Below are positions 11,286 to 42,120 of a stretch of DNA of 64,000 nucleotides, piece after piece (positions within the stretch are counted from its first letter, which is position 1; every line of letters begins with the position of its first letter). A program made the position numbers and the translations under genes. Source of the stretch: an uncultured delta proteobacterium. Its GTDB lineage: Bacteria; Myxococcota_A; Polyangia; Polyangiales; Houyiibacteriaceae. A model generated the notes under the pieces. It was given only the letters and a program-made list of their open reading frames with translations, was not told the DNA's origin and did no database searches. Location of the stretch: positions 142,348 through 206,347 of the forward strand of contig CAVQHC010000017.1 in the NCBI GenBank assembly GCA_963712235.1, in the 5' to 3' direction.

Positions 11286-11295
11286 AAAACCGACT

Positions 11296-11622: not shown

Positions 11623-11623
11623 C

Positions 11624-24795: not shown

Positions 24796-26463
24796 ATGAC
24801 TCACAGCAGTAGCCTCGACGCGGAATCGCTACGACTCGTTCTCGATTCGCTCGATGATTTCGCCAAAGCAAACCTCAGCGACGAGAAACTCCTCGAGCTC
24901 GATGAGAAGGACATCTTTCCAGAGGAGCTCGTCCGCGCGATCGGCAGCGAAGAGCTCGGAGTGCAGCTGGTGTTCATCCCCGAAGAGCACGGTGGGATGG
25001 GCGGCGGGGCCTTCGACGTGTATCGGGTCTGCGAAGCGATGGCCCGGATCGATGTCGGCCTAGCCACCGGCGTCCTGGCGACCTTTCTCGGCAGCGACCC
25101 CATCGTGTTCGGCGGGACGCCCGAGCAAAAAGAACACTGGCTGAGCCGTATCGCGGAAGAAGGTTTGCTCATGGCTTACGGGGCCACCGAACCAGCTGCC
25201 GGCAGCGACCTTGCCGCGCTCAAGACGGTGGCGGTCCCCGTCGAAAAGGATGGCAGCGTCGTTGGATACGAGATCACCGGGAACAAGCAGTGGATCTCGA
25301 ACGGCGGGTACGCCGATGTGTACACCGTGCTTGCGAAGGCACCGGGTGGTCCCAGCTGGTTTGTCGTCGAACGCGGCGCCGAGGGCTTTTCTGCGGGGAA
25401 ACCCGAGGACAAGCACGGTATCCGGCTGAGCAATACGACCGCCTTGGTTCTCGAAAACGTCTACGTCGACGCCGGTCAGCTCGTGGGGCTCGAGGAAGGC
25501 CAAGGGCTGCAGCAGGCTCAGCTGGTCTTCGGGTTCACGCGACTGATGGTGGCGGCCTTCGGGCTTGGCGCGGGCTGGGCGGCTCTCGACCGGACGATCG
25601 AATACTCGACCGAACGCATTCAAGGTGGGGCGCCGCTCTCGGAAAAGCAGGGCTACACGCACAAGCTCATCGTGCCGCATGCGGTGCGCCTGGAGGCCGC
25701 GCGAGCCTACATCGAGCAAACGGCAGAGGCCATCGACAAGGGCGGCGACGACTTGCTGAACACCGAGGGCGCGATCGCCAAATACCTCGCGAGCGAGGCG
25801 GGCAACGCCGCGGCAGACGCAGCCATTCAAGGGCACGGCGGCTACGGGTACACCAAAGAGTACATGGTCGAGAAGATCAAGCGCGACGTTCGAATCACCA
25901 CGATCTACGAGGGCACCTCCGAAATCATGGAAATGACGATCGGACGCGACCGCTGGCAGCATCACCTCAAGACCCGCGGGCAGCACTATCACGACCTCGG
26001 GCGGCGGCTCGAAGGCGTACACAGCGAGCACCCCAAGGTCGGTGCCGACATCGCGGCGCTGGCCGCACACGCCCTCGCAGAAGTCATGGAACGCGCACGC
26101 GAGAAACGTCTCACGCGCAACCAGCACGTATTGTTTCGAATCGGTGAGCTCGCCTCCTATGTCGAAGGTGCGGCGGCGTTTGCTCGACGCGCAGTCCGTG
26201 CCGAGCTCGATGAGCTCAATCCAAAGTCCCCAAGGCGATTTTCGCCGCCGGCTGTTGCGGCAATGGCGCGGGTTTTCGCGCGTGAAGCCGCGCAGCGCGT
26301 TGCCGTAGACGGCATGCGTTGGGTCATCGGCGCCGAAGCGCCGGGGAGCGCAGACGTCCCGTCGCTCGAAACGAGCGCGGGCCTGTCGAACGTTTATGCA
26401 GCCCAAGCGGGGTTGATCGAAGACATGAATCAGGTGGGGGACGCGCTTTACGAGCGCTCCTGA
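24796..26463 (+). CDS. acyl-CoA dehydrogenase family protein (555 aa, with C-terminal extension)
   Basis: Contains [37 protein letters not shown] and [14 protein letters not shown]. The ATG at 24796 ([12 protein letters not shown]...) is in frame within ORF 24628... Confidence 0.9.
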
Positions 26464-26482
26464 CCAAGCAGGGAGCCCGCAG

Positions 26483-29400
26483 ATGCAAGATCAGGTACAT
26501 CGAGCCATAGCTGTCGTCGGGGTCGGCGCAGTACTTCCGGATGCACAGAACGCCAAGGAGCTCTGGAACAACGTTTCAACCGGGCGCTACAGCATCAGCG
26601 AAACACCCGTCGACCGTTGGGACCCGGCGCTTTATTACGATGCAGACCCAAAGGCCCCCGACAAGACCTATTCGAAGATCGGGGGCTGGGTTCGCGAGTT
26701 CAACTGGGAGCCCCTGAAGTGGAAGCTGCCGATTCCGCCGAAGGTGGCGGAGTCGATGGACCGCACGCAGAAGTGGTCGATCATGTCGGCGCGAGAGGCG
26801 CTTCTCGATTACGGCTATCCAGAGCGCCCGCTCGATGGCGATCGAACCGCGGTGATCCTCGGGAACGCCATGGCAGGCGACCAGCATTACAAGACGGCGC
26901 TTCGCATCTTTTTTCCCGAGTTCTCGCGTGAGCTCGACGGAGCGCCGAGCTTTCAAGCGCTCCCAGGGGACGTCAAAGCCGCAATCGTCGAAGAAACGAT
27001 GGGACGCATGCGGGAGCACTTTCCGACCATCACCGAGGACACGATGCCCGGCGAGCTCGCGAACATCATCGCCGGCCGTGTGGCGGCGGTCTTCAACTTT
27101 CACGGTCCCAACTTCACGGCAGATGCGGCCTGTGCGTCGGCCATGGCCGCCTTCAGCGCTGCCATCTCGGGGCTCGAAGAAGGGGACTACGACGCCGTGC
27201 TCACCGGCGGCATCGACAGCAACATGAGCGCGCCGAGCTACACGAAGTTCTGCAAGATTGGCGCGCTCTCGGCCACCGGGACGCGGCCTTACGACGAAGG
27301 CGCCGACGGTTTCGTGATGGGCGAAGGCGCGGCGGTCTTTCTTCTAAAGCGTTTGGAAGACGCCGAGGAAGCGGGCGACAAGATCTACGCCGTGGTTCGG
27401 GGAATCGGCGGGTCGAGCGACGGCAAAGGCAAGGGGATCACCGCGCCCAACCCGATCGGACAGAAGCTCGCGATCGAGCGCGCATGGGCTCATGCCGGCG
27501 AGGATTTGGCGACGGTGAGCCTGATTGAGGGCCACGGCACGTCGACGCGGGTTGGCGATGTGGTCGAGGTGCAAAGTATGGTCGACGCGTTCGCCGATGC
27601 GGGGCTGCCCAATTCGAGCGTTCCAATCGGCTCGGTCAAGTCGAACATCGGTCACCTCAAGGGAGCCGCTGGCGCCGCCGGCCTGCTCAAAGCCACCCTC
27701 GCACTGCACCACAAGCAGCTGCCCCCGAGCATCGGATTCCAGACACCCAACCCGAAGATCGGGTTCGGTCACATCCCGTTTTACGTCAACACCGAGCTCA
27801 GGCCTTGGGATGACTTCAAAGAAGTTCGGCGAGCGGGCGTCAGCGCATTCGGTTTCGGAGGGACGAATTTCCATGCCGTCCTCGAAGAGCACGTGCCTGG
27901 GAGGATTCAACGAAAGAAGCGGACCTCGGTATCGGTGCCCTCCGGCTCCTCGACGCCAACGGCGACCGGCGCCGTTGCGATGGCTGACAAGGCCCCGATG
28001 CGCGGTTCTTTGGTCCTGGGCGCCGGCTCGACTAAGGAGTTGGCGATCAAGCTCGATGCGGTGCTCGAAGACGCGAAGGCCGGGCGCGCGCCCAATCGCC
28101 AGCCGCCAGCCGCTTCGGATCTCCATGCCGCGGGAAGGCTGGCGATCGACTTCGGTGACGCAGCCGAGCTCGCCAAGAAGGCGACGAATGCCGCCAAGGG
28201 GCTTCGCGCCGACAACGCGGCGATGTGGAAGGCGCTGCGAGCGCAGGGCATCTTTTACCGAACGGGGGCCGCACCAAAAACAGCGTTCCTTTTCACGGGC
28301 CAGGGTTCGCAATACGTGAACATGCTGCGAGAGCTTCGCGAGGTGGAGCCGATCGTGGCTGACACTTTCCGAGAAGCCGACGACGTGATGAAGCCACTGC
28401 TCGGTCAGCCGCTGAGCGAAATCATCTTCGTCGATCCGAACGACAAAGCAGCGGTCGCCGAAGCGGACGAGGCGCTTCGGCAGACCGCGATCACCCAGCC
28501 GGCGGTGCTCGCAACCGACCTTGCGCTGACGCGGCTTCTGGCCGCTTATGGCACGACCCCTGACATGGTCATGGGACATAGCCTCGGAGAGTACGGTGCC
28601 TTGGTGGCGAGTGGGGCGCTCGGCTTTCGCGAGGCGCTCGAGGCGGTCAGCGCGCGCGGACGGGAGATGACCAAGGTCTCGGTCGACGACAACGGCTTGA
28701 TGGCCGCCGTCCTCGCGCCGATTGATGAGGTGCAGGCGATTGTGAGCTCGGTCGATGGATACGTGGTCATCGCCAACATCAACAGCTTCGGCCAGTCTGT
28801 GATTGGTGGTTCGACCCCGGGTGTGACGGCGGCGATTGAGGCGATCGCGAAGGCCGGCCACCAGGCTATCCCGCTCCCGGTCAGTCACGCGTTTCACACC
28901 GAGGTCGTTGCCCCAGCAAGCGGCCCGCTCAAAAAAGAGATCGCACGGCTCGGCATCGAATCGCCGAAGATTCCAATCGTCGCCAACGTCAGCGGTGAGT
29001 TCTACCCGATGGGGCCGAACGTCGCCGAAGAGATGATCGAGCTCCTCGGTCGGCAAATCGCCTCGCCGGTGCAATTCGTGAAGGGGCTCGAGACTTTGTA
29101 CGACGCGGGGGCACGGGTCTTCGTCGAAGTCGGTCCGAAGTCCGCTCTGGCGCGATTTGCCGAAGATGTGCTTGGCAGCAAGGCCGACTCCCTGTCCCTG
29201 TTCACCAACCACCCGAAGATCGGGGACGTCGCGGCCTTCAACGCAGCGCTCACCGGGCTCTATGCGAGCGGGCACGGCGCGCCCAAGAGCGAGCGCAGAT
29301 TGCAAGAGCTGAGCAGCAACGGAGCAGCGACCCGCGTGGCTGCTGCAGCGGCTCCGGCCGTGCCCCCGACGCTTACCGTTTCGGCGCGTCGGGCGCCCCA

Positions 29401-32400
29401 ACGGGCATCATCCGCCGTGGGAGGCGATCGCTATGCCCAACTCGGCCGCTTGTTTGCCGATTTCCTCGACCAAGGGATGGAGATCTATCGCGGCGGGACC
29501 GCCGTCGATTCCGGAGAGCCGGTGGTCGTCACCGGAGCGACCATCGGACTGCCCGGCGGGGAGAAGGTCTTTGCGGACGAAAACGTCGACCGGATGCTGC
29601 ACGGTCAGAGCTTCATCGACGCGATCCCGGTGGGGCTTCGTCGTGCGATGGCGGACAAGAAGATCACCCGCCTCGTGAAATCGGAAAAAGGCGGGGCGCG
29701 CTTCGAAACGATCGACTCGCCCGCCGACGTGATCAAGCTCGCCGGCCGGGCTGGCGACATCGCCTTGTCGAGCGATTTCGGCATTCCCGAGGAGCGCGCG
29801 GCCGCGATGGACTCGACGACACGAATGGCCGTTGCCGCAGGAGTGGAGGCGCTACGCGACGCGGGGATTCCGCTCGTGATGCACTACAAGACGACGACCA
29901 AGGGAACGAAGCTTCCCGACCGCTGGGGCTTACCCGCGGAGATGCAAGACGAGACCGGCGTCATCTTCGGTTCGGCGTTCCCCGGCTCCGACATGTTCAT
30001 GGGCGAGGCTCGGCGATACTACGAGAGCGAGACGCAGGAGAGACTGCTCGATGAGCTGCGCAGCTTAAGGGCGCGCATGGCAAGCAACGGCGGCGACCCG
30101 CTAGGCGCAGAAATCGACCGTCGAATCGCGGAAATCGAAAGCGACCGTCAGCGCGATCCGTACACGTTCGACCGGCGCTTCCTGTTCAAAGCGCTGTCGA
30201 TGGGCCACTCTCAGCTCGCGGAGTACATCGGCGCGCGCGGGCCGAACACCCAAATCAACTCGGCGTGTGCCAGTGGAACGCAGGCTGTGGCGCTAGCCGA
30301 GGATTGGATCATGCGCGGTCGGTGCAGGCGCGTCGTGGTCGTCACCGCGGACAACGTGACGAGCAACAATTTGATGGAATGGATCGGTGCGGGTTTCCTG
30401 GCCAGCGGCGCCGCGGCGACGGACGAGGTACTCGAGGACGCCGCCCTTCCCTTCGATCGTCGACGTCACGGCCTCATCCTTGGAATGGGCGCTTCGGGCA
30501 TGGTCATCGAAAGCGCGGACGCGGCCCGCGAACGCGGTCTGAGGCCAATCGCACAGGTGCTCGGTACGGTGACCGCCAACAGCGCCTATCACGGCAGCCG
30601 TTTGAACATCGAGCACATTCAGGGTTTGATGGAAAAGCTGGTCGCAGACTGTGAGGCGCGGCACGGCATCGATCGCGCGGCGATCGCGCCGAACACGGTA
30701 TTCGTTTCACACGAGACGTACACACCGGCACGCGGCGGTAGCGCTCAGGCGGAGATCAGCGCGCTTCGCAAGGTCTTTGGCGCCAACGCGGACAGCATCG
30801 TAATCGCAAACACGAAGGGCATGACGGGTCATGCGATGGGTGCGGGGGTGGAAGACGCGACCGCCATGAAGATTCTCGAGACGGGTTTGGTCCCGCCGGT
30901 GGCAAACTTCAAAGAGGTGGACCCGGAGCTAGGTGCGCTAAACCTCTCGAGAGGCGGGAGCTACCCCGTTCAGTATTCACTTCGACTGGGCGCTGGGTTC
31001 GGCTCCCAGATTAGCCTGTCGCTCTGCCGTTGGGTCCCGAGCCCAGACGGGCGTCGACCGGCGCCAAGGGAGCTGGGCTACACGACTCGGGTCGAGGATC
31101 GAGCGCTCTTCGAACGCTGGGTTGCGTCCGCCACCGGCTACGCCTCGCCGGAGTTGGAAGTGGTGAATCGGACCCTGCGGGTGAAGGATCAGGGTCCCTC
31201 GGCCGCAGTCGCGGTGTCAGCGTCAACGGCAGTGTCAGCGTCAGTGCCAGCGTCAGTGCCAGCGTCAGCGCCAGTGCCGGCGTCAGCGCCAGTGCCGGCG
31301 CCGGCGCCGGCCATCGACCCCGTGACGGCGAAGGTCTTGTCGATCGTCTCCGAGCAGACGGGATATCCCTCCGACATGCTCGACCTCGAGCTCGACCTCG
31401 AGGCCGACCTCGGGATCGACACCGTCAAGCAGGCGGAGACCTTTGCTGCAGTGCGCGAGGCGTACGATATCGAGCGCGAGGACAATCTCGAGCTTCGGGC
31501 GTTCCCGACGCTCGGGCACGTGGTTCAGTTCGTCCGCGACCGCCGACCAGACTTGATGGCCGCGCCATTGCCAGCGCCAGCGTCAGCGCCAGCGTCAGTG
31601 TCAGTGCCAGTGCCAGTGCCAGTGCCGGCAATCGACCCCGTGACGGCGAAGGTCTTGTCGATCGTGTCCGAGCAGACTGGGTATCCCTCCGACATGCTCG
31701 ACCTCGAGCTCGATCTCGAAGCAGACCTCGGGATCGACACCGTCAAACAAGCAGAGACCTTTGCTGCAGTGCGCGAGGCGTACGATATCGAGCGCGAGGA
31801 CAATCTCGAGCTTCGGGCGTTCCCGACCCTCGGGCACGTGGTTCAGTTCGTCCGCGACCGCCGACCAGACTTGGCGGCAGCGCCAGTGTCAGCGCCAGCG
31901 CGAGTGTCAGCGTCAGTGCCAGCGCCAGCGCAGCGACCCGGTGACCGCGAAGGTACTCGCGATCGTGTCCGAGCAGACTGGGTATCCCTCCGACATGCTC
32001 GACCTCGAGCTCGACCTCGAAGCGGACCTCGGGATCGACACCGTCAAGCAGGCCGAGACCTTTGCCGCCGTGCGCGAGGCGTACGATATCGAGCGCGAGG
32101 ACAATCTCGAGCTTCGCGACGTTCCCGACCCTCGGGCACGTGGTGCAGTTCGTCCGCGACCGCCGCCCGGATCTGGTGCCAGCGCCAGCGCCAGCGTCAG
32201 TGCCAGCGTCAGTGCCAGCGCCGGCGTCAGAAGATTTGATCACCCAGAAGGTGCTCGAAGTCGTCGCGTCGGTCACCGGCTACCCGCCCGTAATGCTCGA
32301 GCTCGACCTGGACCTCGAGGCGGACCTCGGAATCGACACGGTCAAGCAAGCCGAGACTTTTGCCGCCGTGCGCGAAGCGTATGGAATTCCTCGCGACGAC

Positions 32401-35022
32401 AAGCTCGAGCTTCGAAATTTCCCGACGCTCCATCACGTCATCGCCTGGGTGAAAGAATCCATTCCCGAGGCTGCGGCGTCGGCAGCCGCTCAGGCCGAAG
32501 CCGCCGACGCTTCACCTGCCGCAGTGGCAGCGCACGAACCGGCGGAAGGGCTGCGCCGTGTTCCCGTGGCCGTGCTCAGGCCTCCGCTATCCGCCTGCAA
32601 GCCGACCGGCGTCAATTTCGTCGAAGGGGCACGCGTCGTCGTGATGGCCGATCGGGGACCGGTCGGAAAGGCGCTGGTCAAGCAGTTGAAGAAGCTCGGC
32701 GTCGAGCTGCTCGTCGTCGACGACACACCTTCTGCGGAAGAGCTCAGTCTGAGGCTCGAAGGCTGGATGAAGGACGGTCCGATCCTCGGCGTTTACTGGC
32801 TCCCGGGGCTCGATCGAGAAGACCCAATCGCCGATCTCTCCCCGGACGACTGGACCAGCGCGGTCCAAAGGCGCGCCAAGCTCTTGTTCACGACGATGCG
32901 CACGCTTTACGAGCAGATCTCGGGGCCGGGCAGGTTCCTGATGTCGGCGACGCGCTTTGGCGGGAAGCACGGCTTCGACGAGCCTGGCGCGGTGGCGCCA
33001 CTTGGAGGCGCCGTTGGCGGCTTCACCAAGACTTACAAACGCGAGAAACCCGAGGCGACGGTCAAGGTCGTCGACTTCGAGGCGAAAGTGAAGGCAAGCA
33101 CCGTCGCCGAACGACTCATCGCGGAGACCTTGTCGGACCCCGGGGCATGCGAGCTTGGCTACACCGGAGACGAACGCTGGGCGATCACGGCATCTTTTGA
33201 AGCGGCGCCGACCTCGCGCCCGTTCGCACTCGGGCAAGACAGCGTCTTTGCGATCACTGGCGCTGCCGGGTCGATCGTGTCTGCGATTGTCCAGGACCTG
33301 GCCAAGGCGTCGGCTGGAACCTTCCATCTGCTCGACCTCACGCCCGAGCCGGATGCCGACGACCCCGACCTTCAACGCTTCGCGAGCGACCGCGATGGCC
33401 TTCAGCGTGAGCTCTTCGAGCGGCTGAAGCAGAGCGGAGAGAAGGCGACGCCGGTAGCGGTGCAACGCCTGCTCAGCGAGCTCGAGCGAAAGCACGCTGC
33501 GCTCCGGGCCATCGAATCGGTTCGCGCTGCGGGCGGCAAGGTGCACTATCATTCCGTAAATCTGCTGGATCGCGAGGCGGTCGCTGCGACGATCGAGGTC
33601 ATTCGGGAGCAGAGCGGACGTATCGATGCCCTGGTGCACGCGGCCGGGCTCGAGATCAGTCACTTCCTACCCGACAAGAAACCGTCGGAGTTCGATTTGG
33701 TCTTCGATGTTAAGGCGACCGGCTGGTATCACCTCTTGTCGTCGATCGGAGACATGCCGCTCGGCGCCGCGGTGGTCTTCAGCTCGATTGCGGGTCGATT
33801 CGGCAATGGCGGTCAAACCGATTACAGCGCCGCCAACGAGCTTCTGGCCAAGTCGGTTTCGAGCTTCCGAAACGCGCGGCCAGGCACGCGGGGCATCGTC
33901 GTCGACTGGACCGCCTGGGCAGACATCGGCATGGCATCCCGCGGATCCATCCCCAAGATGATGGAGTTGGCCGGCATCGACATGTTGAAGCCTGCGGACG
34001 GCCTTCCGGTCGTACGTACCGAGCTCGAAGCGGGCACATCCGGTGAGGTCGTGATTGGCGGCGCGCTCGGAATCCTCATGCAGGAATGGGACGAAACCGG
34101 CGGGCTCGACCCGAGGAACCTTCAAGCGGTCCGTCGAGGCCCGATGAGCACGCATCTGGTCTCGATGGGCATTCATTCCGGTCTCCAGGTCGAGACTACG
34201 CTGGACCCGCGGGAGCAGCCTTTCCTCTACGACCACAAGATCGGCGGTACGGCCGTCTTGCCGGGTGTGATGGGGCTCGAGGGCTTCGGTGAGATCAGTG
34301 AGGCGCTTTTTCCCGACTGGCACGTCCGAGCTATTGAAGGCGTCGATTTCCTCGCGCCGTTCAAGTTCTATCGGGACGAGCCCAGAACGCTAACGCTGAC
34401 CGCGCAGTTCACCACCGACGGCAACGAGCTGCTGGCGCGCTGCCGCTTGATCGGCACGCGACCGATCCTGGGTAGAGACGAGGTGAAGACCCATTTCGCC
34501 GCAACCGTCCGGCTCGCGCGCGAGCCCGTCGACAGACACAGATCGGAAGCCCCCCCTCACGCCTCCGACGCGAGCGTGGCCGACAAGGACATCTACCAGG
34601 TTTACTTTCATGGCCCGGCCTATCAGGTGTTGGACACCGCATGGCGTGACAATGGCGTGGTGGTCGGCCGAATGCGCGAGCAACTCCCCGACGATCGCCA
34701 GCCAGCGGACCTCGAAATGGTGACGGAGCCACGGCTGGTCGAGCTCTGCTTCCAGACCGCAGGTGTATGGCAGATCGGCACGACCGGCCGGATGGGACTG
34801 CCGCAACACATCGACGAGCTCGAATGCGTTCGGTCCGCCGATGCGGTCGAAGGGCGGCTGCACGCCGTGGTGAGTCCGCGGGATGGTGGAAAATCGTTCG
34901 ACGCGCATGTGACGGATGAAGCCGGCAACCTCTACGTGGTACTCCGTGGATACCAGACGGCGGAGCTCCCCGAGGACGTGGACCCAGAAAAGCGGAAGCC
35001 TCTCCGCGCGGCGATGGACTGA
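26483..35022 (+). CDS. iterative-type type I polyketide/fatty-acid megasynthase, KS-AT-KS-ACPx4-KR-DH, carrying two +1 frameshifts around ACP3
   Basis: KS1 spans 26498-27890 (Cys codon 27131 in DAACASA; His 27533 and 27653). AT spans 28284-29160 (GQGSQ; GHSLGEY, Ser codon 28580). KS2 spans 29515-31035 (INSACASG, Cys codon 30266; [20 protein letters not shown]). The ACP array spans 31316-32460. KR spans about 32610-34060 (ITGAAGSIV; Tyr codon 33823). The hot-dog DH spans about 34140-35019 ([14 protein letters not shown], His codon 34234). ORF pieces: 26483..32239, 31761.. (ACP3 body) and 32062..35022. Confidence 0.9.
31316..32460 (+). repeat. tandem array of four carrier-protein (ACP-like) coding repeats with Pro/Ala/Ser/Val linkers
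   Basis: The unit [79 protein letters not shown] is repeated with offsets of 318, 301 and 298 nt. Copies 1-3 are nearly identical in DNA. Copy 4 has diverged. Confidence 0.9.
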
Positions 35023-35028
35023 ACGAAG

Positions 35029-38000
35029 ATGGGCAATATGACCTTCACGCGAATTGCAATCGTAAACCGCGGCGAACCTGCGATGCGATTCATCATCGCC
35101 GCGCGGGAGTACACGCAGGAGCATCGCGAGGCGCTTCACACGATCGCGCTTTACACGGATCCCGACCGCCGAGCGATGTTCGTACGCGAGGCCGACGAAG
35201 CGTACGCGCTCGGCCCTGCAACCTTCGTGACCAAGGACGGCCATCGCAAGTCGAGCTACCTCGACTACGACCGCCTCGAGCGCGCCCTCATCGAAACACG
35301 TGCCGAAGCGGTTTGGCCAGGATGGGGCTTCGTGGCCGAGCACCCCAGGTTTGCAGACCTCTGCGAACGACTCGGGCTCGTCTTCATCGGGCCGACGGGG
35401 GACATGATGCGCAAGCTGGGCGACAAGATCGCCTCCAAGCAGCTCGCAGAAAAGGCGGAGGTTCCGGTCGCACCCTGGAGCGGTGGTGAGGTGGCGACGC
35501 TCGACGATGCGCGTACGCACGCGGCGCGCCTCGGCTACCCTCTGATGATCAAGGCGACCGCAGGTGGCGGAGGCCGTGGGATCCGCCGCGTACAAAGCGA
35601 GTCCGAGCTGGCTGACGCGTTTCAAAGCGCGAGATCGGAGGCCGAGAAGTCTTTCGGAGACCCTGCGGTGTTCCTAGAGCGAATGGTGACTGGGGCGCGC
35701 CACGTCGAGGTTCAGATTATCGCGGACGACGAAGGAACGACTTGGGCGCTGGGCGTGCGCGACTGTACCGTCCAACGGCGCAACCAGAAGATTCTCGAAG
35801 AGACCCCTTCGCCGGCGCTGAGCGAGGAGCAACAGACTGAGCTCGAGCAAGCCGCAATCCGGCTGACCCAAGCGATCGGCTATCGAAACGCGGGAACGGT
35901 GGAATTCCTTTATCACCAGCCGACGCGGCAGTTCTCGTTCATGGAGGTCAACGCGCGGCTGCAGGTCGAGCACCCGGTCTCGGAGATTGTCACCGGCGCC
36001 GACCTCGTGAAGCTACAGATCCACGTCGCGCGAGGCGGCCGACTGGACGCGGTACCCCCCGTCAAGCGTGGGTACGCGATCGAAGCGCGGCTGAACGCCG
36101 AGGATCCGGAAGACAACTTCGCGCCCTCGCCTGGGCTCGTCGAACAACTTCGGCTGGCGAGCGGCCCCGGCCTGCGGGTCGATACCGGCATTGCGGAAGG
36201 CGATCGAATCCCGTCCGAATTCGATTCGATGATCGCCAAGATCATCGCCCACGGGCGCACGCGTGAGGAGGCGCTCGCCCGGCTTCGGCGGGCGCTCCTC
36301 GAAAGCGAGGTCGTGATTCGCGGGGGCGCCTCCAACAAGGGCTTTCTTCTCGGCTTGGTGGACAATCCAGCGGTTCGCTCTGGCGAGGTCGATGTGGGCT
36401 GGGTCGACCGCCTCGTCGCTGAGGGGAGGCACCTGCCCCGCGAGGGAGCGGAACTCGCCCTCCTGCAGGCTGCAATTGAAACCTATGACGCAGAGCTCGA
36501 TGTGGAGCGCGCGCAGTTCTACACCGCCGCGGCGCGAGGGCGTCCGCAGGTGGAAGACACACACGGACAGGCGATGGAGCTCACCCATGCCGGACATACC
36601 TACGAGCTCACCGTCTTTCGCCTGGGCCCAGACCGCTACCGGATCGACGTCGATGCGCAGCGCATCGAAGTCGTGGTGGAACGCTTCGAAGGCGCAGAGC
36701 GTCGGCTCCGGATCGGCAATCGGCACGCGCGAATTCAGTCGGTCGACCAGGGGCTGAGTGTCCTCGTGGAGGTCGACGGTGTGCCGCACCGCATCTCTCG
36801 AGACCGTGGCGGCCTCGTCCGTGCACCATCGCCAGCAGTCGTGGTCAATGTGCTCGTTTCGGAGGGCCAAGACGTCGCGGTTGGAGATGGGCTCGTCGTC
36901 CTCGAAGCGATGAAAATGGAAATGGTCATCGGCGCGAAGTTTGCCGGCAAGGTGCGCGAGGTCATGGTGATGAACAACGTGCAGATCGCGATCGGCGCGC
37001 CGATGTTGCTCATCGAGCCGAGCGGTGGCGAAGCCGCTTCTGCGTCGGACGAGCGCTTGAGCTTTTCCACCCTCTCGGTCGAGCAGGATCAAGACTATTC
37101 GGTCTACCGGCACAATCTAATCGAGCTCAAACGCCTAATCATGGGCTTCGACGCGGACCGTGTGGAGCTTTCGCGTGAAATCGAGGATGGCAACATCGTT
37201 ACCGCAAGCGTGGCGCCCGACGATTCTGGACGCCTTGCGCTCGAAGACCAGATCCTCAACGTCTTCGTGGATCTGTGCTCTTTGTTCCGCCGGCAGTCGC
37301 GCTACGAGGACGGGTCTGAAGACTTCGGAAAACACACCGCCGAAGAGTATTTGTTCACGTTCCTCCGCGACCTCGTCGTTCGTCGTGAAGAGGAGCTCCC
37401 GGCATCGTTCGTCTCCAAGCTTCGTAGGGCCATTGGCCACTTCGGTCTGGCCGAAATTCAGCGCAACGCCGAGCTGCAAGGGGTGCTGTTTCGGATCTGC
37501 AAAGGAAACAAGCGGATCGACGAACAGGTCGCACCAGTGCTGAGCTTGCTGCAGGGCCGCCTCGATAACATCGGCACGCTTCGCGAGGCGGTTGGAGACG
37601 ACTTCCGCGAGCTCTTGTCTCGAATGATCATCGAGACTCAGGATCGCTACCCCGCCATCCATGATCTGGCACGCGAGCTGCAGTATCACTACTTCGAGCG
37701 CCCAATTCAGGAGCGCGTCGAAAAAGAGACACTAGCCAAGGTCGATCGGATTCTCGCGCAGCTAGTCGCGGACCCGCAGGGCCCGGACAGAGCCGCACGC
37801 ATCGCAGAGCTCGTCGCCGTTCCCCAACCTCTCAAGGGGTTCATGTCGCGGCGGCTGGAGCAGGCGAGCCATGACGAACGTCTGATCATGCTCGAGACCC
37901 TCGCCCGCCGATACTACAAGATGTGCGATCTGAGGGACTTCGAACTGCTCTCCGACGGCGGAATTGACATTTCCAAGTGCTGGTATGAGTACGAAGGCAA

Positions 38001-40590
38001 GAAGATTCACTTCTTCGCCACGCACGTCGCCGGCGAGCAGCTGCCCGATGCGATTTCCGAGCTGAAGCGTCACGTCGAAGCTGCTCCAGAAGCCGACGAC
38101 GTCGTCGTAGATTTCTATGTGTTGCATCGCGACCAGCTCGAGAGCCCAGACAAGACGTCAGAGGGGCTTACGCGCCTGCTCGGAACGTTCGAGCCCGCAA
38201 GACCGATCCGTCGCGTCATCGTCTCCGTAACTGGAAGTGAAACCGGGCTCGGAGCAAACGAGTTGCAGGCGTTCACGTTTCGAATGGGTGAAGATGGCTT
38301 TCGCGAGGAGCTGATTTACCGCGGCATGCACTCTATGCTGAGCAAACGTCTGCTCTTGTGGCGCCTAAAAGACCTGAGCACAGAGCGAGTCGATTCGGCA
38401 GAAGACGTGAATCTCTATCGTGTGACCGGAAAGGACGAGCGTCTGATTTGCCTCGCCGAGGTGCGCGATCTGACGCCGGTCCGTGACGCCTCGGGCCGCG
38501 TAGTCGCCCTCCCCAACCTCGAGCGAACGCTTTCGAAGTGCCTAATTGCCATTCGACGCGAGCAGAGCACGAGAACCTCGGGAAGGCGCTTTCAATGGAA
38601 CCGAGTTCACCTCTTCCTCTGGCCGCCGCTGGACCTGAGCCAAGAAGAGATCAACGGCATCATTCACAAGCTCGCACCGGAGACGACCGGACTTGGACTC
38701 GAGCGAATCGTCGTCCAGGGGACCATTCGCAACCCAGCAAGCGGCAAGCTCGAGGAGAAGCTGCTCGACGTGTCGAATCGTGGCCGCCAGGGACTCAGCG
38801 TCCGGCTTCGCGACCTTCCAACCCATCCGATGCGGCCCCGCAGCGCGTACGAGCAAAACGTCGTCCGGTTGAGCCAGCGGGGTTTGATGCACCCGTACGA
38901 GATCATCTCCATGCTCACGCCTGGAGAGGACAGTGACGTTCAGTCGGATTTCCCGCATGGCGAGTTTCGCGAGCTCGACCTCGACGAGGCCAATCAGCTC
39001 GTCCCCGTGGAAAGGCCCCCTGGAAACAACAGCGCCAACATCATCGTCGGCCTGCTAACCAGCTTCACCGACAAGTATCCCGAAGGAATGACGCGCGTTG
39101 CGCTCTTGGGAGACCCGAGTCGAGGCATGGGCGCTCTCGCCGAACCCGAGTGCCGCCGCATCATTGCCGGCCTCGACCTCGCCGAGCAGATGCGGGTACC
39201 CTTGGAATGGTACGCAGTCTCCGCGGGCGCCAAGATTTCCATGGAAAGCGGTACGGAGAACATGGACTGGATCTCGGCGGTCTTGCGACGACTGATCGAG
39301 TTCACGCAGGCAGGGTCCGAGGTGAACGTCCTGGTCTGCGGCATCAACGTTGGCGCCCAGCCGTACTGGAACGCCGAGGCCACGATGCTCATGCACACCA
39401 AGGGCATCCTCATCATGTGCCCGGGCAGTGCGATGGTGCTCACCGGCAAGCAGGCGCTCGACTACTCGGGGGGCGTATCGGCCGAAGACAACACCGGAAT
39501 CGGCGGATACGATCGAATCATGGGGCCCAATGGTCAGGCGCAATACGCTGCGCGCGACCTCGCGGACGGCTGCCACATTCTTCTTCGTCACTACGACCAC
39601 AGCTACGTCATGCCCGGCGAACGTTTTCCGCGGCGCGCCGCGACGAAGGATGCAATCGACCGGGACGTTTGCGATTCGCCGCACGGCCATATCGGTGCTT
39701 CGACCTTTGCGACCGTGGGCGAGGTCTTCAATCCAATGACCAATCCAGGCCGAAAACGCCCCTTCGACATTCGCAAGGTAATGCGTGCCGCGACGGACCA
39801 GGACCACGACGTGCTCGAGCGATGGTATGGGATGCGCGACGCGGAGACCGCCGTGGTCTGGGACGCTCACATCGGCGGGTTTCCAGTCTGTCTGATTGGA
39901 CTCGAATCACAGCCCTTGTCCCGCCTCGGCTTCGTCCCGGCGGATGGGCCCGCAGTTTGGACGGCGGGAACCTTGTTCCCGATGTCTTCGAAGAAGGTGG
40001 CCCGAGCAATCAACGCAGCAAGCAACAACCGGCCCGTGGTCGTACTGGCGAACTTGTCCGGCTTTGACGGCTCTCCAGAGTCGTTGAGGCAGCTTCAGCT
40101 CGAGTACGGGGCCGAGATTGGCCGCGCCGTGGTCAACTTCAAGGGGCCGATGGTGTTCTTGGTGATCTCACGATACCACGGTGGGGCCTTCGTTGTGTTC
40201 TCCACCAAGTTGAATCCGTCGTTGGAAGTGTCGGCGCTCGAGCATACCTATGCCTCGGTCATCGGCGGCGCGCCGGCAGCGGCGGTGGTGTTTGCCGGTT
40301 CCGTGCGCAAGCGAACCCTCTCGGACGAGCGGATCATGGCGCTGCAGCAGGAGCTCGATCGGGCTGTCGGTGCCGAACGCGTGGCGCTCCGGGATCGCCT
40401 CGGCAAAATGGAGAAGGTCGTGCACTCGGAGAAGCTGCGCGAGGTGGCCGAGGAATTCGACAGCGTCCACAGTGTGCATCGAGCGCAAGAGGTCGGCTCC
40501 GTCCACCGAATCATTCCTGCCAGCACTCTGCGGCCGTACTTGGTGGACGCGATCGAGCGCGGGATTCAACGCGAGCAGTCTCAGGGATGA
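35029..40590 (+). CDS. single-polypeptide biotin-dependent acyl-CoA carboxylase (BC - BCCP - central region - CT), 1853 aa
   Basis: The N-terminal biotin carboxylase/ATP-grasp domain reads FTRIAIVNRGEPAMRFI...GYPLMIKATAGGGGRGIR...MEVNARLQVEHPV. The biotinyl motif is VVLEAMKMEMV (Lys codon 36913). The C-terminal carboxyltransferase reads ...GMGALAEPECRRI...VCGINVGAQPYWNAEATM...GFDGSPESLRQLQLEYGAEI... Confidence 0.9.
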   Translation: MGNMTFTRIAIVNRGEPAMRFIIAAREYTQEHREALHTIALYTDPDRRAMFVREADEAYALGPATFVTKDGHRKSSYLDYDRLERALIETRAEAVWPGWGFVAEHPRFADLCERLGLVFIGPTGDMMRKLGDKIASKQLAEKAEVPVAPWSGGEVATLDDARTHAARLGYPLMIKATAGGGGRGIRRVQSESELADAFQSARSEAEKSFGDPAVFLERMVTGARHVEVQIIADDEGTTWALGVRDCTVQRRNQKILEETPSPALSEEQQTELEQAAIRLTQAIGYRNAGTVEFLYHQPTRQFSFMEVNARLQVEHPVSEIVTGADLVKLQIHVARGGRLDAVPPVKRGYAIEARLNAEDPEDNFAPSPGLVEQLRLASGPGLRVDTGIAEGDRIPSEFDSMIAKIIAHGRTREEALARLRRALLESEVVIRGGASNKGFLLGLVDNPAVRSGEVDVGWVDRLVAEGRHLPREGAELALLQAAIETYDAELDVERAQFYTAAARGRPQVEDTHGQAMELTHAGHTYELTVFRLGPDRYRIDVDAQRIEVVVERFEGAERRLRIGNRHARIQSVDQGLSVLVEVDGVPHRISRDRGGLVRAPSPAVVVNVLVSEGQDVAVGDGLVVLEAMKMEMVIGAKFAGKVREVMVMNNVQIAIGAPMLLIEPSGGEAASASDERLSFSTLSVEQDQDYSVYRHNLIELKRLIMGFDADRVELSREIEDGNIVTASVAPDDSGRLALEDQILNVFVDLCSLFRRQSRYEDGSEDFGKHTAEEYLFTFLRDLVVRREEELPASFVSKLRRAIGHFGLAEIQRNAELQGVLFRICKGNKRIDEQVAPVLSLLQGRLDNIGTLREAVGDDFRELLSRMIIETQDRYPAIHDLARELQYHYFERPIQERVEKETLAKVDRILAQLVADPQGPDRAARIAELVAVPQPLKGFMSRRLEQASHDERLIMLETLARRYYKMCDLRDFELLSDGGIDISKCWYEYEGKKIHFFATHVAGEQLPDAISELKRHVEAAPEADDVVVDFYVLHRDQLESPDKTSEGLTRLLGTFEPARPIRRVIVSVTGSETGLGANELQAFTFRMGEDGFREELIYRGMHSMLSKRLLLWRLKDLSTERVDSAEDVNLYRVTGKDERLICLAEVRDLTPVRDASGRVVALPNLERTLSKCLIAIRREQSTRTSGRRFQWNRVHLFLWPPLDLSQEEINGIIHKLAPETTGLGLERIVVQGTIRNPASGKLEEKLLDVSNRGRQGLSVRLRDLPTHPMRPRSAYEQNVVRLSQRGLMHPYEIISMLTPGEDSDVQSDFPHGEFRELDLDEANQLVPVERPPGNNSANIIVGLLTSFTDKYPEGMTRVALLGDPSRGMGALAEPECRRIIAGLDLAEQMRVPLEWYAVSAGAKISMESGTENMDWISAVLRRLIEFTQAGSEVNVLVCGINVGAQPYWNAEATMLMHTKGILIMCPGSAMVLTGKQALDYSGGVSAEDNTGIGGYDRIMGPNGQAQYAARDLADGCHILLRHYDHSYVMPGERFPRRAATKDAIDRDVCDSPHGHIGASTFATVGEVFNPMTNPGRKRPFDIRKVMRAATDQDHDVLERWYGMRDAETAVVWDAHIGGFPVCLIGLESQPLSRLGFVPADGPAVWTAGTLFPMSSKKVARAINAASNNRPVVVLANLSGFDGSPESLRQLQLEYGAEIGRAVVNFKGPMVFLVISRYHGGAFVVFSTKLNPSLEVSALEHTYASVIGGAPAAAVVFAGSVRKRTLSDERIMALQQELDRAVGAERVALRDRLGKMEKVVHSEKLREVAEEFDSVHSVHRAQEVGSVHRIIPASTLRPYLVDAIERGIQREQSQG

Positions 40591-41255
40591 CGATACGCTG
40601 GAGGCTCCTTGCTGCATCCGAGCTGCCACAAGGGGACGGCTGGCTCATAGCAGAAGAGCGGAAGGTCCTAGCGGGACTCCGGTTTCAAAAGAGGCGCGCT
40701 GACTGGCGACTCGGACGGTTGGTAGCGAAGCGTACCGTGTCTTCAGTCGTCGGGGTCGATGACCTAAATCGGATTCACATCCTCGCGGCAAAAGACGGCG
40801 CCCCCGAAGCGTGGATCGACGGACAAAGGCTCGACTCGGAAATCTCGATCAGCCATCGCAACGGGCTGGCCGCGTGCGCGATTGCGCCGGGCGCTGGCGT
40901 CGGCTGCGACCTGGAGGCCGTCGAGCCGCGGAGCTCACGCTTCGTGAATGACTTCTTCACCGAGCGCGAACGCAGGGTGGTTGGGACGACGGCCGAGGCT
41001 CATCGAGATCGTGTCGTTGCCTTGACCTGGAGCGCCAAGGAAAGCGCACTGAAGGTTTTGCGGGTGGGTCTGCGGCGGGACACGCGTAGCGTCGAAGTGG
41101 TACTCGACCATGTCGAAGCGGCTGAAGCCGGCTGGCATCCATTGCGCGCCGCTGTCAGGCCAGAGGGCCAAAACTTTCGAGGTTGGTGGCGCCAAGAAGC
41201 CGGGATCGTGTTGACGATCATGAGCGACGAGGAAACCCAATCCATCGCCAACTAG
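40587..41255 (+). CDS. Sfp-type 4'-phosphopantetheinyl transferase
   Basis: Contains ISISHRNGLAACA, GVGCDLE and WSAKESALKVL motifs. The start overlaps the carboxylase stop (ATGA at 40587-40590). Confidence 0.85.
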   Translation: MTIRWRLLAASELPQGDGWLIAEERKVLAGLRFQKRRADWRLGRLVAKRTVSSVVGVDDLNRIHILAAKDGAPEAWIDGQRLDSEISISHRNGLAACAIAPGAGVGCDLEAVEPRSSRFVNDFFTERERRVVGTTAEAHRDRVVALTWSAKESALKVLRVGLRRDTRSVEVVLDHVEAAEAGWHPLRAAVRPEGQNFRGWWRQEAGIVLTIMSDEETQSIAN

Positions 41256-41260: not shown

Positions 41261-41536
41261 TCAGGACTTGCTGAACCAGCCGCGCAGTCGGCTCAAAATG
41301 CCGCCCTTTTCTTTCGCGATCTGTTTTTGAATCTTCCCGAGCGTCCTCGATGAGGTTTCGAGCGGATCAAAGCTCGAAGCGAGCGCAGCAATCGAATCTT
41401 GAAAGTCTTTGACGACTTGGGCGAGGCTGGGGTCGGCCGCGAGGAGCGCTTCGAGCTCTTTTTCGTCTTCCTCTGAGGCCGCACCGGCCGCATGGAGCGC
41501 CGCTAGGAGCTCCGCTCGTTCTCGCTCTTCGTTCAT
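41261..41536 (-). CDS. small soluble anti-sigma-factor-like protein (RskA N-terminal-like, no TM segment)
   Basis: ELLAALHAAGAASEEDEKELEALLAADPSLAQVVKDFQDSIAALA resembles anti-sigma N-terminal domains. The start overlaps the ECF sigma stop by 4 nt. Confidence 0.45.
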   Translation of the reverse strand: MNEERERAELLAALHAAGAASEEDEKELEALLAADPSLAQVVKDFQDSIAALASSFDPLETSSRTLGKIQKQIAKEKGGILSRLRGWFSKS

Positions 41537-42120
41537 GTCTTCATCGCCCTGTGAATGATGGGGAGAGTGGTGCGCAGCGAGCGCATGCCCGCGAGGATTC
41601 GAGACTTGACCGTGCCGACGGGTAACTTGAGCGTGTCGGCGATCTGGCCGTGCGACATCCCTTGGAAATACGAGAGCTCGAGCACGGCCCGCTGCTCTGC
41701 ATCGAGGCGCTGAAACGCTTGCCTGAGGGCCTGGTGCCAGCGCGTCGATGAGGCCATCACATCGGGACGTTTTCGCTCGGTCATCAGAGCATCCCCTTCC
41801 TGGTACTCGAATTGCCGATCGCCATGGCGGCGCTTGCGCGCGCGAAGTGAATCCAGGGCACGGCTTCGGGCGACGGTGACAACCCAGGCGATGACGCTGC
41901 CTCTAGAGCTGTCGAATTGAGAGGCGCGCCGCCAGAGCTCCACGAACACGTCCTGTAGGAGCTCCTCTGCCTCCGCAGGAGAACCAAGCATCTTCGTCAG
42001 GAGTGCAAGAACGGTGCTCGCATACTGCTCGTAGAACGCGCTCAAGGCTCGATCCGAATCGCCCGCCGCCATCGCCGCGACGAGCTCCTCCGGGTCTTGG
42101 GGACGTGCTTCGGTCATCAT
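41533..42120 (-). CDS. ECF-type RNA polymerase sigma-70 factor
   Basis: Region 2 reads LLQDVFVELWRRASQFDSSRGSVIAWVVTVARSRALDSLR. Region 4 reads LSYFQGMSHGQIADTLKLPVGTVKSRILAGMRSLR. Confidence 0.9.
   Translation of the reverse strand: MMTEARPQDPEELVAAMAAGDSDRALSAFYEQYASTVLALLTKMLGSPAEAEELLQDVFVELWRRASQFDSSRGSVIAWVVTVARSRALDSLRARKRRHGDRQFEYQEGDALMTERKRPDVMASSTRWHQALRQAFQRLDAEQRAVLELSYFQGMSHGQIADTLKLPVGTVKSRILAGMRSLRTTLPIIHRAMKT

Follow-up and report, generated by a model that had tools for sequence, protein, structure and literature searches.

A PfaA-like synthase cassette with two ketosynthases and threonine-type carrier domains in a myxococcotal genome

How does a PfaA-type synthase that has no enoyl reductase (ER) finish its reduction cycle, and which residue of its carrier domains holds the growing chain when threonine occupies the place of the cofactor-bearing serine? 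Both questions are raised by a run of four genes, coding for an acyl-CoA dehydrogenase (ACAD), a megasynthase, a carboxylase and a PPTase, all of which lie on the + strand and in one direction at positions 24796-41255 of a 64-kb stretch of DNA from an uncultured delta proteobacterium. The whole of this stretch is referred to below as the window.

The cassette and the reading frame of its synthase gene

The genes of the cassette, the domains that they code for and two interruptions of the reading frame are located as follows:

24796..26463, + strand: ACAD; ATG at 24796, stop at 26461-26463, 555 aa
26483..35022, + strand: PfaA-like megasynthase, KS1-AT-KS2-ACPx4-KR-DH; ATG at 26483, stop at 35020-35022, frame broken twice
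26501..27937, + strand: KS1, a PfaA/PKS-type ketosynthase (PF00109, PF02801, PF16197)
28286..29188, + strand: AT, with GHSLG and HAFH (PF00698; fabD TIGR00128, 196 bits)
29480..31180, + strand: KS2, a FabF-like but divergent ketosynthase, N-terminal half with insertions (TIGR03150, PDB matches)
31316..31555, + strand: carrier 1, frame 2 (PF00550); Thr codon 31421-31423 at the phosphopantetheine-Ser position
31634..31873, + strand: carrier 2, frame 2 (PF00550); Thr codon 31739-31741
~31900..31934, + strand: first frame break (+1), in the linker that joins ACP2 to ACP3 (three-frame translation, repeat alignment)
31935..32175, + strand: carrier 3, in frame 0 to ~32118 and then in frame 1; Thr codon 32040-32042
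32115..32122, + strand: second frame break, an extra A at ~32119 (repeat alignment)
32230..32460, + strand: carrier 4, frame 1 (PF00550); Thr codon 32338-32340
33253..33924, + strand: KR, with YSAAN (PF08659)
34174..34983, + strand: DH, a PKS-type double-hotdog dehydratase (PF21089, PF14765)
35029..40590, + strand: single-chain eukaryote-type acetyl-CoA carboxylase (ACC), 1853 aa (Pfam BC, BCCP and CT)
35044-36408, BC; 36817-37011, BCCP (AMKM); central region; CT to 40557, + strand: subdomains of the carboxylase (Pfam)
40587..41255, + strand: Sfp/HetI-type PPTase, 222 aa, translationally coupled via ATGA (PF01648, PF17837)

The longest ORF for the ACAD begins at a GTG at 24628, but its relatives measure 553-570 aa and the start was accordingly placed at ATG 24796. 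A gap of 19 nt that holds GGGAG (26464-26482) separates the ACAD and megasynthase genes, the gap to the carboxylase gene is 6 nt (35023-35028), and the carboxylase and PPTase genes overlap by an ATGA at 40587-40590. The ORF coordinates thus bear out the co-directionality, the two gaps and the overlap that had been reported in an initial annotation of this DNA. Scans for promoters and terminators returned counts equal to those expected from shuffled sequence. Beyond the closest relative, L007, conservation with the cassette stops both upstream (an AMP-binding enzyme, an FAD monooxygenase, an SGL-like propeller and GreA) and downstream (an ECF sigma factor and a Ser/Thr kinase), and for this reason the flanking genes were left out of it. 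The interval is a self-contained cassette that looks co-transcribed.

The initial annotation also took the megasynthase to be a single ORF spanning 26483-35022. This did not hold, as two +1 shifts split the reading frame in the deposited sequence. The frame 2 ORF (26483-32239) codes for KS1-AT-KS2-ACP1-ACP2 and then runs on through about 100 aa of out-of-frame text. Upon three-frame translation, ACP3 was readable only in frame 0, from 31935, and ACP4-KR-DH was found in frame 1 (ORF 32062-35022). Because the Ala/Pro/Ser/Val-rich linker is of low complexity, the first break cannot be fixed to an exact base. In the alignment of the repeats, the second break reads CTTCGCG[A]CGTTCCC, as against CTTCGGGCGTTCCC in ACP1/ACP2. 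Removal of two bases yields a 2845-aa protein that is colinear with the intact orthologues of loci L005 (2848 aa) and L006 (2756 aa); intact orthologues span 2756-3028 aa.

These breaks could mean that the present copy is a decaying pseudogene, in which both shifts are genuine and leave the synthase split or without activity, and neither shift lies within a homopolymer. However, the domains on either side of the breaks are free of stops and keep every catalytic residue, identity to L005 is 88% for KR and 74% for DH, and the ACC and PPTase genes are intact. Moreover, a third frameshift, in a G6 run of an unrelated gene of the window, has an intact orthologue in L007, and comparable breaks interrupt the carrier repeats of three other MAG loci (L001, L010 and L075). 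Together, these observations favor assembly error, and they make the pseudogene an improbable reading. Since close relatives carry an intact gene, we conclude that assembly error most likely accounts for both interruptions of the carrier repeats.

Catalytic domains and threonine carriers

The domain order KS1-AT-KS2-four carriers-KR-DH was supported by Pfam and NCBIfam HMMs, which also recover the second KS and the BC, BCCP and CT domains of the carboxylase. TIGR02813 (PfaA) is the best match of both KS1-AT and KR-DH, in agreement with the PfaA-like core proposed initially; KS1 alone scores 404 bits, and the frame-corrected 2845-aa protein 1008.5 bits, a borderline value that falls below the curated threshold of 1010.1. 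Across 47-83 relatives (20 sequences in the case of the PPTase), the catalytic residues do not vary, except for a single substitution of the DH-motif Gly. Cys-His-His of KS1 is found in 69/69 relatives, GHSxG and the malonyl-type motif HAFH of the AT in 75/75 sequences, and the Tyr and Asn of KR in 61/61; in the DH motif, HxxxGxxxxP, His and Pro are present in 58/58 and Gly in 57/58. Among the ORFs of the 64-kb window that were scanned against Pfam, several others being unscanned or without a match, none codes for an ER, TE, CLF or FabA-type DH, as the initial annotation had stated, nor did we find a release enzyme (TE or other).

KS2 is 23% identical to KS1. It scores only 142 bits against fabF (TIGR03150, residues 241-508), its best PDB matches are FabF enzymes, and its relatives from several phyla are 60-94% identical to it. 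An AlphaFold model of KS2 was of low confidence (mean pLDDT 60.7) and was not used for a fold search. The catalytic residues C263, H411 and H451 are invariant in 83/83 sequences; there is thus, as first proposed, a second complete KS, placed after the AT and ahead of the carriers. The same residues rule out that KS2 is a chain-length factor (CLF), which would be without the active-site cysteine.

All four carriers of the window contain DLGIDT, in which threonine replaces the serine of cofactor attachment. The carriers match in fold and motif (PF00550, PROSITE PS00012), but at the start of helix II, where a serine is expected, they have threonine, and this threonine aligns on the Ser of solved ACPs. 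Threonine, encoded by any of its four codons, also occupies the phosphopantetheine-Ser position in 261/261 carriers of related loci; most relatives have 3-5 carriers, and some up to 7. The carriers of the family, with DTVKQAE, form a Thr-type clade that is separate from the PUFA-type clade with DSIKRVEI. The initial annotation makes no mention of the carrier threonines. We know of no carrier protein in which the bearer of phosphopantetheine is other than a serine, and phosphopantetheinylation of threonine is, to our knowledge, without precedent. No report of threonine-linked phosphopantetheine was found in the literature searched, which left most subscription journals outside its scope.

The Type R family and its distribution

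Secondary lipid synthases designated Type R, with the organization KS-MAT-'CLF'-ACP(3-6)-KR plus a PPTase gene, have been described from distant phyla, the hosts including Koribacter versatilis, Solibacter usitatus, Elusimicrobium minutum and Roseiflexus spp. (Shulse & Allen, 2011; PMC3098273). In Koribacter, the genes for the synthase and the PPTase are separated by one for an ACC, and the sections of that paper on Type R give the product as uncharacterized. By this published description, the cassette is a member of the "Type R secondary lipid synthase" family: its synthase is a single pfaA homologue in which Pfam and NCBIfam recognize KS1-AT-KS2-4 carriers-KR(-DH), and the ACC gene (35029-40590) is followed by that for the PPTase (40587-41255) in a Koribacter-like arrangement. 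The second domain of Type R synthases is termed a CLF in PMC3098273, whereas the KS2 of the family keeps its Cys-His-His in 83/83 sequences; the Type R passages of the paper are silent on an upstream ACAD, on the DH, on ETF genes and on carrier threonines. The statement of the initial annotation that no characterized cluster of this composition could be named therefore stands in part. No characterizing paper was found, but the composition had been catalogued, as Type R, in 2011. In the literature searched, with most subscription journals outside its scope, we found neither a characterization of the cassette nor a link to a product, and no report of a constant ACAD, a Cys-His-His KS2 or all-Thr carriers in the family.

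Relatives of KS2 occur in at least 590 species genomes. Synteny of the cassette extends across at least six phyla, with the ACAD upstream and on the same strand in 68/68 loci, KR and DH in 65/66, the ACC in 49/60 and the PPTase in 33/35. The order ACAD-synthase-(ACC)-PPTase is shared by Acidobacteriota, Actinomycetota, Myxococcota and other groups; the recurrence of the four-gene order in other Myxococcota and in other phyla, which the initial annotation had put forward as a check, was thus found. Parts of the cassette are ~60-70% identical between phyla, and colinear relatives with 61-70% identity include a Korobacteraceae MAG (L053) and Bryobacteraceae MAGs (L041, L047 and L073), from what we take to be the families of Koribacter and Solibacter. 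For these comparisons, full-length synthases were taken from the loci because the homologue listing gave proteins of less than 1000 aa, and L002 (Nostocoides), where a KS2-like fragment stands alone among unrelated genes, was set aside. The window locus is a typical member of the family.

The carboxylase has the organization of the eukaryote-type multidomain ACCs (group V, PMC6491548), BC-BCCP-central region-CT, with a CT nearest to that of eukaryotic ACC. Its CT half matches the CT domains of eukaryotic ACCs in the PDB with E values of 3e-18 to 6e-14, and the lone non-eukaryotic PDB match of its C-terminal 1183 aa is a geranyl-CoA carboxylase β-subunit (9e-6). The MKM Lys is invariant (47/47). 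PF08326 (ACC_central) was not detected in the window carboxylase but is present in the L001 orthologue. By description, the protein resembles the "actinobacterial homodimeric" ACC SACE_4237 of Saccharopolyspora erythraea, also a chain of ~200 kDa with BC-BCCP-central region-CT and a eukaryote-like CT, which, in the part of PMC6491548 that deals with it, carboxylates only acetyl- and propionyl-CoA; a supply of malonyl-CoA is presumed for both. SACE_4237 was, however, studied as an essential housekeeping ACC, whereas the ACC gene of the window sits within a synthase operon and is not kept by all members of the family. A long-chain carboxylase of the MapLCC/PaLCC type was considered and rejected. 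The single-chain LCCs are of ~120 kDa, with CT N-terminal and BC-BCCP C-terminal, and belong to a separate CT clade, according to the relevant part of PMC6491548; the window protein has 1853 aa, with BC N-terminal and a eukaryotic ACC-like CT C-terminal, and no LCC chain was present among the best 60 of its 76 PDB matches.

In the PPTase, the Mg-binding D/E (GCDLE) and WxxKExxxK (WSAKESALK) are those of Sfp-type enzymes and are invariant in 20/20 sequences. The gene is found downstream in 22/24 loci that contain an ACC and in 11/11 that do not, as suits a dedicated partner, and the suggestion that the pathway has its own means of carrier activation is thereby upheld. The parallel suggestion of an own extender-unit supply fared less well. 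A dedicated carboxylase is there, but the eukaryote-type ACC, together with the malonyl-type HAFH of the AT, indicates that the extender is most likely ordinary malonyl-CoA, and 11/60 loci with an otherwise identical cassette have no ACC.

The acyl-CoA dehydrogenase and the possible product

The ACAD consists of three ACAD domains (PF02771/PF02770/PF00441) and a conserved C-terminal helical extension of ~170 aa; its catalytic Glu sits in YEG, which is invariant in 67/67 relatives. With an AlphaFold model of low confidence (mean pLDDT 65.5), used for architecture only, the top Foldseek matches were 3owa, 2z1q, VLCAD and ACAD9, over ~570-600 columns. The predicted architecture is VLCAD-like and extended, with a dimeric-type fold and a C-terminal extension that it would share with the VLCAD-type extended ACADs. 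By sequence, the protein falls in the Bcd/SCAD/MCAD group, which includes physiological ETF-dependent enoyl-CoA reductases (clostridial Bcd/EtfAB, AcrC and CarC, and the 2-methyl-branched-chain enoyl-CoA reductase of Ascaris). The ACAD homologue of Ascaris mitochondria is an enoyl-CoA reductase driven by ETF and rhodoquinol. In 42 loci, all from Acidobacteriota or Verrucomicrobiia, the ACAD gene is immediately preceded by genes for an EtfD-like FeS/CCG protein, EtfB and EtfA; ETF genes thus adjoin the cassette in Acidobacteriota, but none was found in the 64-kb window. Partners of the EtfD-like kind are known from beta-oxidation, which proceeds in the oxidative direction, and it is this direction that the EtfD/ETF pair of Mycobacterium tuberculosis serves. 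Pairwise distances of the ACAD correlate with those of KS1 and KS2 (r = 0.91-0.95), which fits co-inheritance and, equally, a shared species phylogeny.

On balance, we think that the cassette probably codes for a lipid synthase that works iteratively, is fed with malonyl-CoA and has the ACAD as its redox partner in trans. The ACC would make malonyl-CoA, the PPTase would place phosphopantetheine on the carriers, for which the attachment site in this family would have to be the conserved threonine, and the AT would load malonyl units. KS1 and KS2 would then perform successive decarboxylative elongations, probably over different ranges of chain length, as happens with the KS pair of PUFA synthases. 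KR and DH would convert each beta-keto group to a trans-2-enoyl, and the neighboring ACAD, acting on the tethered chain, would supply the redox step that is lacking. That the ACAD acts with ETF as a trans-acting enoyl reductase is the reading that we prefer, though with some reserve; as an enoyl reductase, it would lead to a largely saturated long-chain acyl lipid, presumably produced at high flux. Tandem ACPs boost flux in PUFA synthases.

Instead, the ER-less core might form a conjugated polyene or a polyhydroxy chain in the manner of the enediyne PksE, in which case the ACAD might desaturate the chain once, at the alpha,beta- or gamma,delta-position, or process the starter unit. By description, PksE and the window synthase are both iterative and ER-less, with the order KS-AT-ACP-KR-DH, a resemblance that had been noted initially, and a dedicated PPTase function, and no PfaD/NMO or MDR enoyl reductase was seen among the Pfam-scanned ORFs of the window. 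Carrier-acting ACAD dehydrogenases exist, the ACAD has weak NCBIfam matches to prolyl-PCP dehydrogenases of the RedW/PigA type, and the oxidative direction of the M. tuberculosis pair would agree with such a role. PksE, however, again by description, contains a single KS and a single carrier, its PPTase is fused, and its partner is a hotdog TE; the cassette differs in having a second KS and no hotdog thioesterase of the PksE kind. Moreover, 3-7 tandem carriers and a dedicated ACC point to lipid made in bulk and not to a metabolite made in traces, and a cross-phylum identity of ~60-70% is unusual among the PKSs of specialized metabolism. We regard this PksE-like reading, with the roles that it gives to the ACAD, as unlikely.

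It is very unlikely that the carboxylase makes an unusual long-chain carboxy-acyl extender, with KS2 performing a head-to-head Claisen condensation like that of mycolate synthesis by Pks13. The place of the carboxylase gene, between those for the synthase and the PPTase, and the deep branching of KS2 among KSs would accord with it. Against it, the CT half matches eukaryotic acetyl-CoA carboxylases and not AccD4/LCC types, the domain order of LCCs is the opposite and their CT clade a different one, and SACE_4237 accepts only acetyl- and propionyl-CoA (in the part of PMC6491548 concerned); the malonyl-type HAFH of the AT is constant (75/75), and the ACC is dispensable (absent from 11/60).

An ordinary omega-3 PUFA synthase (pfa) locus, finally, is hardly credible: PfaA (TIGR02813) is the best curated match, and as in PfaA of pfaABCDE the order is KS-MAT...tandem ACP-KR-DH with Ala/Pro-rich linkers between the carriers, but the score lies just under the cut-off, an additional, active KS stands between the AT and the carriers, these have DTVKQAE and not the DSIKRVEI of the PUFA-type clade, and the locus has an ACAD and a eukaryote-type ACC where most larger ORFs of the 64-kb window were scanned against Pfam and gave no pfaB (AT), pfaC (KS-CLF-FabA DH) or pfaD (ER).

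Taking the malonyl-CoA-fed synthase with its ACAD partner a step further, we tentatively suggest that the family may represent a third, self-contained style of bacterial fatty-acid-type synthase, in which the co-encoded PPTase would place phosphopantetheine on threonine and an ETF-coupled, VLCAD-like ACAD would reduce in trans, to give an abundant lipid. If true, this would mean an abundant lipid in soil Acidobacteriota, Actinomycetota and Myxococcota. Threonine-linked phosphopantetheine, if it exists, would revise a textbook motif, add a new post-translational modification and offer an orthogonal carrier/PPTase pair for engineering. Solving the cassette would show how an ER-less PfaA-type synthase finishes its reduction cycle. 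At least 590 species-level genomes, which represent six or more phyla and include many dominant soil Acidobacteriota, have a relative of KS2, and the solution would reveal a lipid within the biosynthetic reach of a large share of soil bacteria.

Gene layout and reading frames of the cassette

The cassette comprises four co-directional genes in the window, as established by an ORF listing and direct reading; its domains were assigned with Pfam and NCBIfam.

24796-26463: ACAD, TGA stop at 26461-26463 (ORF listing; three ACAD domains, Pfam/NCBIfam)
26483-35022: megasynthase, ATG at 26483, TGA at 35020-35022 (ORF listing and direct reading)
within the megasynthase: KS1 (PF00109, PF02801, PF16197)
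within the megasynthase: AT (PF00698)
within the megasynthase: second KS (KS2) and PP-binding carriers (Pfam/NCBIfam)
within the megasynthase: KR (PF08659)
within the megasynthase: DH, a PKS-type dehydratase (PF21089, PF14765)
35029-40590: carboxylase, 1853 aa (BC, BCCP and CT; Pfam/NCBIfam)
40587-41255: PPTase, 222 aa, start within an ATGA overlap with the carboxylase (ACPS and 4PPT_N)

The spacer between ACAD and megasynthase is 19 nt and includes GGGAG; that between megasynthase and carboxylase is 6 nt. The ORF listing thus bears out the coordinates of the operon proposed in the initial annotation (19-nt gap, 6-nt gap and ATGA overlap), and Pfam and NCBIfam back every domain on its list, including the second KS and the carboxylase domains. 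The megasynthase had also been taken as a single ORF, which it is not in the window sequence: the reading frame is interrupted twice, so that three frames are needed. Frame 2, open from 26483 until the stop at 32239, encodes KS1-AT-KS2-ACP1-ACP2 followed by about 100 out-of-frame residues; ACP3 is legible in frame 0 only, from 31935; and frame 1 (ORF 32062-35022) encodes the end of ACP3, ACP4, KR and DH. Alignment of the four 318-nt carrier repeat units placed the first break, a +1 shift, in a low-complexity linker upstream of ACP3, and the second at an additional A around 32119 (CTTCGCG[A]CGTTCCC, versus CTTCGGGCGTTCCC in ACP1 and ACP2). Deletion of two bases yields a 2845-aa protein colinear with the uninterrupted orthologues in L005 (2848 aa) and L006 (2756 aa), the closest two of the long loci, and with 2805-3028-aa proteins of other phyla.

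Read literally, the two interruptions would make the window megasynthase a genuine pseudogene, which we regard as improbable. The breaks are probable assembly errors or sequencing frameshifts, because the catalytic residues are intact on both sides of them, the genes downstream are intact, a break of this kind also occurs in the carrier repeats of three metagenome-assembled genomes (related loci L001, L010 and L075), and a third frameshift sits in an unrelated gene of the window. The latter, an SGL/NHL/MRJP-like beta-propeller gene (22690-23822), is broken at a G6 run (23105-23111) and reads as two overlapping ORFs, and its orthologue in L007, a close relative, is a single intact 377-aa ORF (3845-4978, ~80% identical). 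This frameshift at a homopolymer suggests indel errors in the window assembly. In L007 itself (CP070713.1, Myxococcales bin5; 7004-11716), the synthase ORF has KS2 as its last domain (1570 aa), and the genes beyond it are unrelated; none of the carriers, KR, DH, eukaryote-type ACC or PPTase was found. Either this part has been deleted, or the carrier repeats caused a misassembly.

Elsewhere in the window lie an ERG4/ERG24-family sterol reductase homologue (7000-8157, 409 bits) and a 3-beta-HSD/epimerase-like SDR (13969-14943), which may be sterol-modifying genes of this Polyangiales (Myxococcota) genome. An IS3-family transposase (4167-5383) has the usual orfA/orfB arrangement, with overlapping ORFs for HTH_Tnp_1 (4167-4520) and an rve integrase core (4517-5383). 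Immediately downstream of the cassette (41533-43877, 47484-49163) lie genes for an ECF sigma factor and for two Ser/Thr protein kinases; the operon converges with the sigma factor gene and with the first of the kinase genes, and none of these genes is conserved beside the cassette in the other loci compared.

Spread of the family and its match to Type R

A search with KS2 returned 1300 related proteins; identity is 60-66% for those of Actinomycetota, Acidobacteriota, Gemmatimonadota and Proteobacteria, and reaches 83% for those of Polyangiales. From a KS2 scan using one genome per species, 80 loci were fetched, onto which the window proteins were mapped. These loci are mostly from Acidobacteriota, the others from Actinomycetota (including Mycobacterium sp., Acidimicrobiales, Microthrixaceae and Ilumatobacteraceae), Myxococcota, Verrucomicrobiia, Calditrichia, KSB1 and Steroidobacteraceae. 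The gene order recurs across them, with the ACC optional: the ACAD gene immediately precedes the synthase, in the same orientation, in 68/68 evaluable loci, KR and DH lie downstream in 65/66, and a PPTase was found in 33 of 35 evaluable loci. The ACC is placed between DH and PPTase in 49 of 60 loci, and in the remaining 11 the PPTase directly follows DH. Among the loci compared, no neighbour outside the cassette is conserved across phyla, with the sole exception of ETF genes: an EtfD-like FeS/CCG protein, EtfB and EtfA are encoded directly upstream of, and co-directionally with, the ACAD in 42 loci, all from Acidobacteriota except one Verrucomicrobiia MAG (e.g., L001 at 790-4744, L012, L018, L037 and L076). 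ETF genes were found neither in the 64-kb window nor in the Actinomycetota and Myxococcota loci. In L002 (Nostocoides australiense HG764815.1), a lone KS2-like fragment (10001-11804, 61% identity) adjoins transposase genes; the neighbourhood is unrelated and lacks the other cassette genes, and the fragment is probably a remnant.

Matched through its published description, the cassette is a Type R cluster. As described in a catalogue of pfa-like clusters (Shulse and Allen, 2011; PMC3098273), Type R has one pfaA homologue (KS-MAT-CLF-ACP(3-6)-KR) followed by a PPTase gene, with members from Koribacter, Solibacter, Elusimicrobium and Roseiflexus; the Koribacter cluster has an ACC gene separating the two, and the Type R product is given there as unknown. 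Colinear relatives are present in Korobacteraceae and Bryobacteraceae MAGs (L053, L041, L047 and L073). No characterisation of Type R after 2011 was found in the full-text literature, the coverage of which excludes most subscription journals. The gene set, at first thought unusual, is not: a KS2 relative is present in at least 590 species genomes, and the window locus typifies a family that is very widespread and was catalogued in 2011. Of the dedicated lipid pathway proposed initially, a PfaA/PksE-like system with its own carrier activation and malonyl-CoA supply remains reasonable; its singularity does not.

Ketosynthases and threonine carriers

KS1 is of the PfaA/PKS type (404 bits against TIGR02813, KS alone). 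FabF models alone match KS2, with a low score (142 bits) that is confined to the C-terminal 270 residues; the N-terminal half of KS2 carries insertions. The two are 23% identical, and KS2 is therefore no recent duplicate. Since Cys263, His411 and His451 are kept in 83/83 sequences, KS2 would by the usual criterion be an active condensing enzyme, and its designation as a CLF was ruled out. The frame-corrected synthase scored 1008.5 bits against the PfaA model (cut-off, 1010.1), so that PfaA is the nearest curated family and the synthase lies at its boundary.

All four window carriers have Thr at the position of the phosphopantetheine Ser (codons 31421-31423, 31739-31741, 32040-32042 and 32338-32340), within a motif shared with the related loci (DLG[IV]DTVKQAE). 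This Thr aligns exactly with the phosphopantetheine Ser of solved ACPs (PigH, ...DLGVDSIA...; FAS ACPs, ...DLDVDSLS...). An HMM search detected 266 carrier domains across 81 related loci (L001, L003-L082), 261 with Thr and five truncated at that position. The position draws on all four Thr codons (ACC 153, ACG 84, ACT 16, ACA 12) and on no Ser codon, though Ser is one mutation off. When ACP1 was searched against 1.84 billion representative proteins, the best 150 matches split into two clades, with 393 Thr-type and 195 Ser-type domains, the latter bearing the PUFA-synthase motif (DSIKRVEI). Most of the Thr-type proteins checked by KS2 HMM or motif have a KS2-type domain, many of the others being fragments; none of the Ser-type proteins checked has one (KS2 HMM, at most 20 bits). 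Tandem carriers of the Thr type are also present in other architectures, as in P0305 and P0347 (~4,020-4,040 aa): some proteins are extended at length at the N-terminus and have an additional KS-like domain, some lack KS1 (P0276, P0324) and a few lack KS2 (P0369, P0375). The clade with Thr carriers thus reaches beyond the window-type cassette.

Strong purifying selection acts on the synthase, and the PPTase is almost always co-encoded; for these reasons the simplest inference from sequence is that this PPTase would phosphopantetheinylate the carrier Thr. We know of no precedent for phosphopantetheinylation of threonine, and none was found in the literature covered, most subscription journals being outside it.

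Carboxylase and ACAD

Over the C-terminal 1183 residues of the carboxylase, the PDB matches are CT domains of eukaryotic ACC (E 3e-18 to 6e-14), the sole non-eukaryotic match being a geranyl-CoA carboxylase β-subunit (9e-6). The ~120-kDa MapLCC type was ruled out: its CT, in the account of Livieri et al. (PMC6491548), is N-terminal and belongs to a separate CT clade, and the window order is BC-BCCP(AMKM)-central-CT. The closest characterised bacterial enzyme with the window architecture is SACE_4237, a homodimeric acetyl/propionyl-CoA carboxylase. Because the AT has GHSLG and a malonyl-type HAFH motif in 75/75 relatives, and 11/60 cassettes have no ACC, the best reading of this enzyme is that it supplies malonyl-CoA locally rather than making a special extender unit.

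The ACAD retains its catalytic Glu (YEG, 67/67) and falls by sequence in the Bcd/SCAD/MCAD group, members of which include the physiological ETF-dependent reductases AcrC, Bcd and CarC. A ~170-aa C-terminal helical extension is conserved. The AlphaFold model is of low confidence (mean pLDDT 65.5; 83-97 in the extension), and its best whole-length structural matches appear to be extended dimeric ACADs (3owa, 2z1q, VLCAD and ACAD9). Since the synthase has KR and DH and no ER, and no ER was found among the window ORFs scanned against Pfam, no candidate other than the ACAD is left for the redox step that the synthase lacks. Reductive operation with ETF has precedents among ACAD homologues: one is the clostridial Bcd/EtfAB complex, and another is the 2-methyl-branched-chain enoyl-CoA reductase of Ascaris, for which rhodoquinol provides the driving force via ETF. 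By its potential (~-74 mV), menaquinol could in principle reduce an enoyl thioester (~-10 mV). Chemically, the reaction could equally well run the other way, as a desaturation. The family is worth experiments for its universal ACAD partner, its apparently active second KS and, above all, its threonine carriers.
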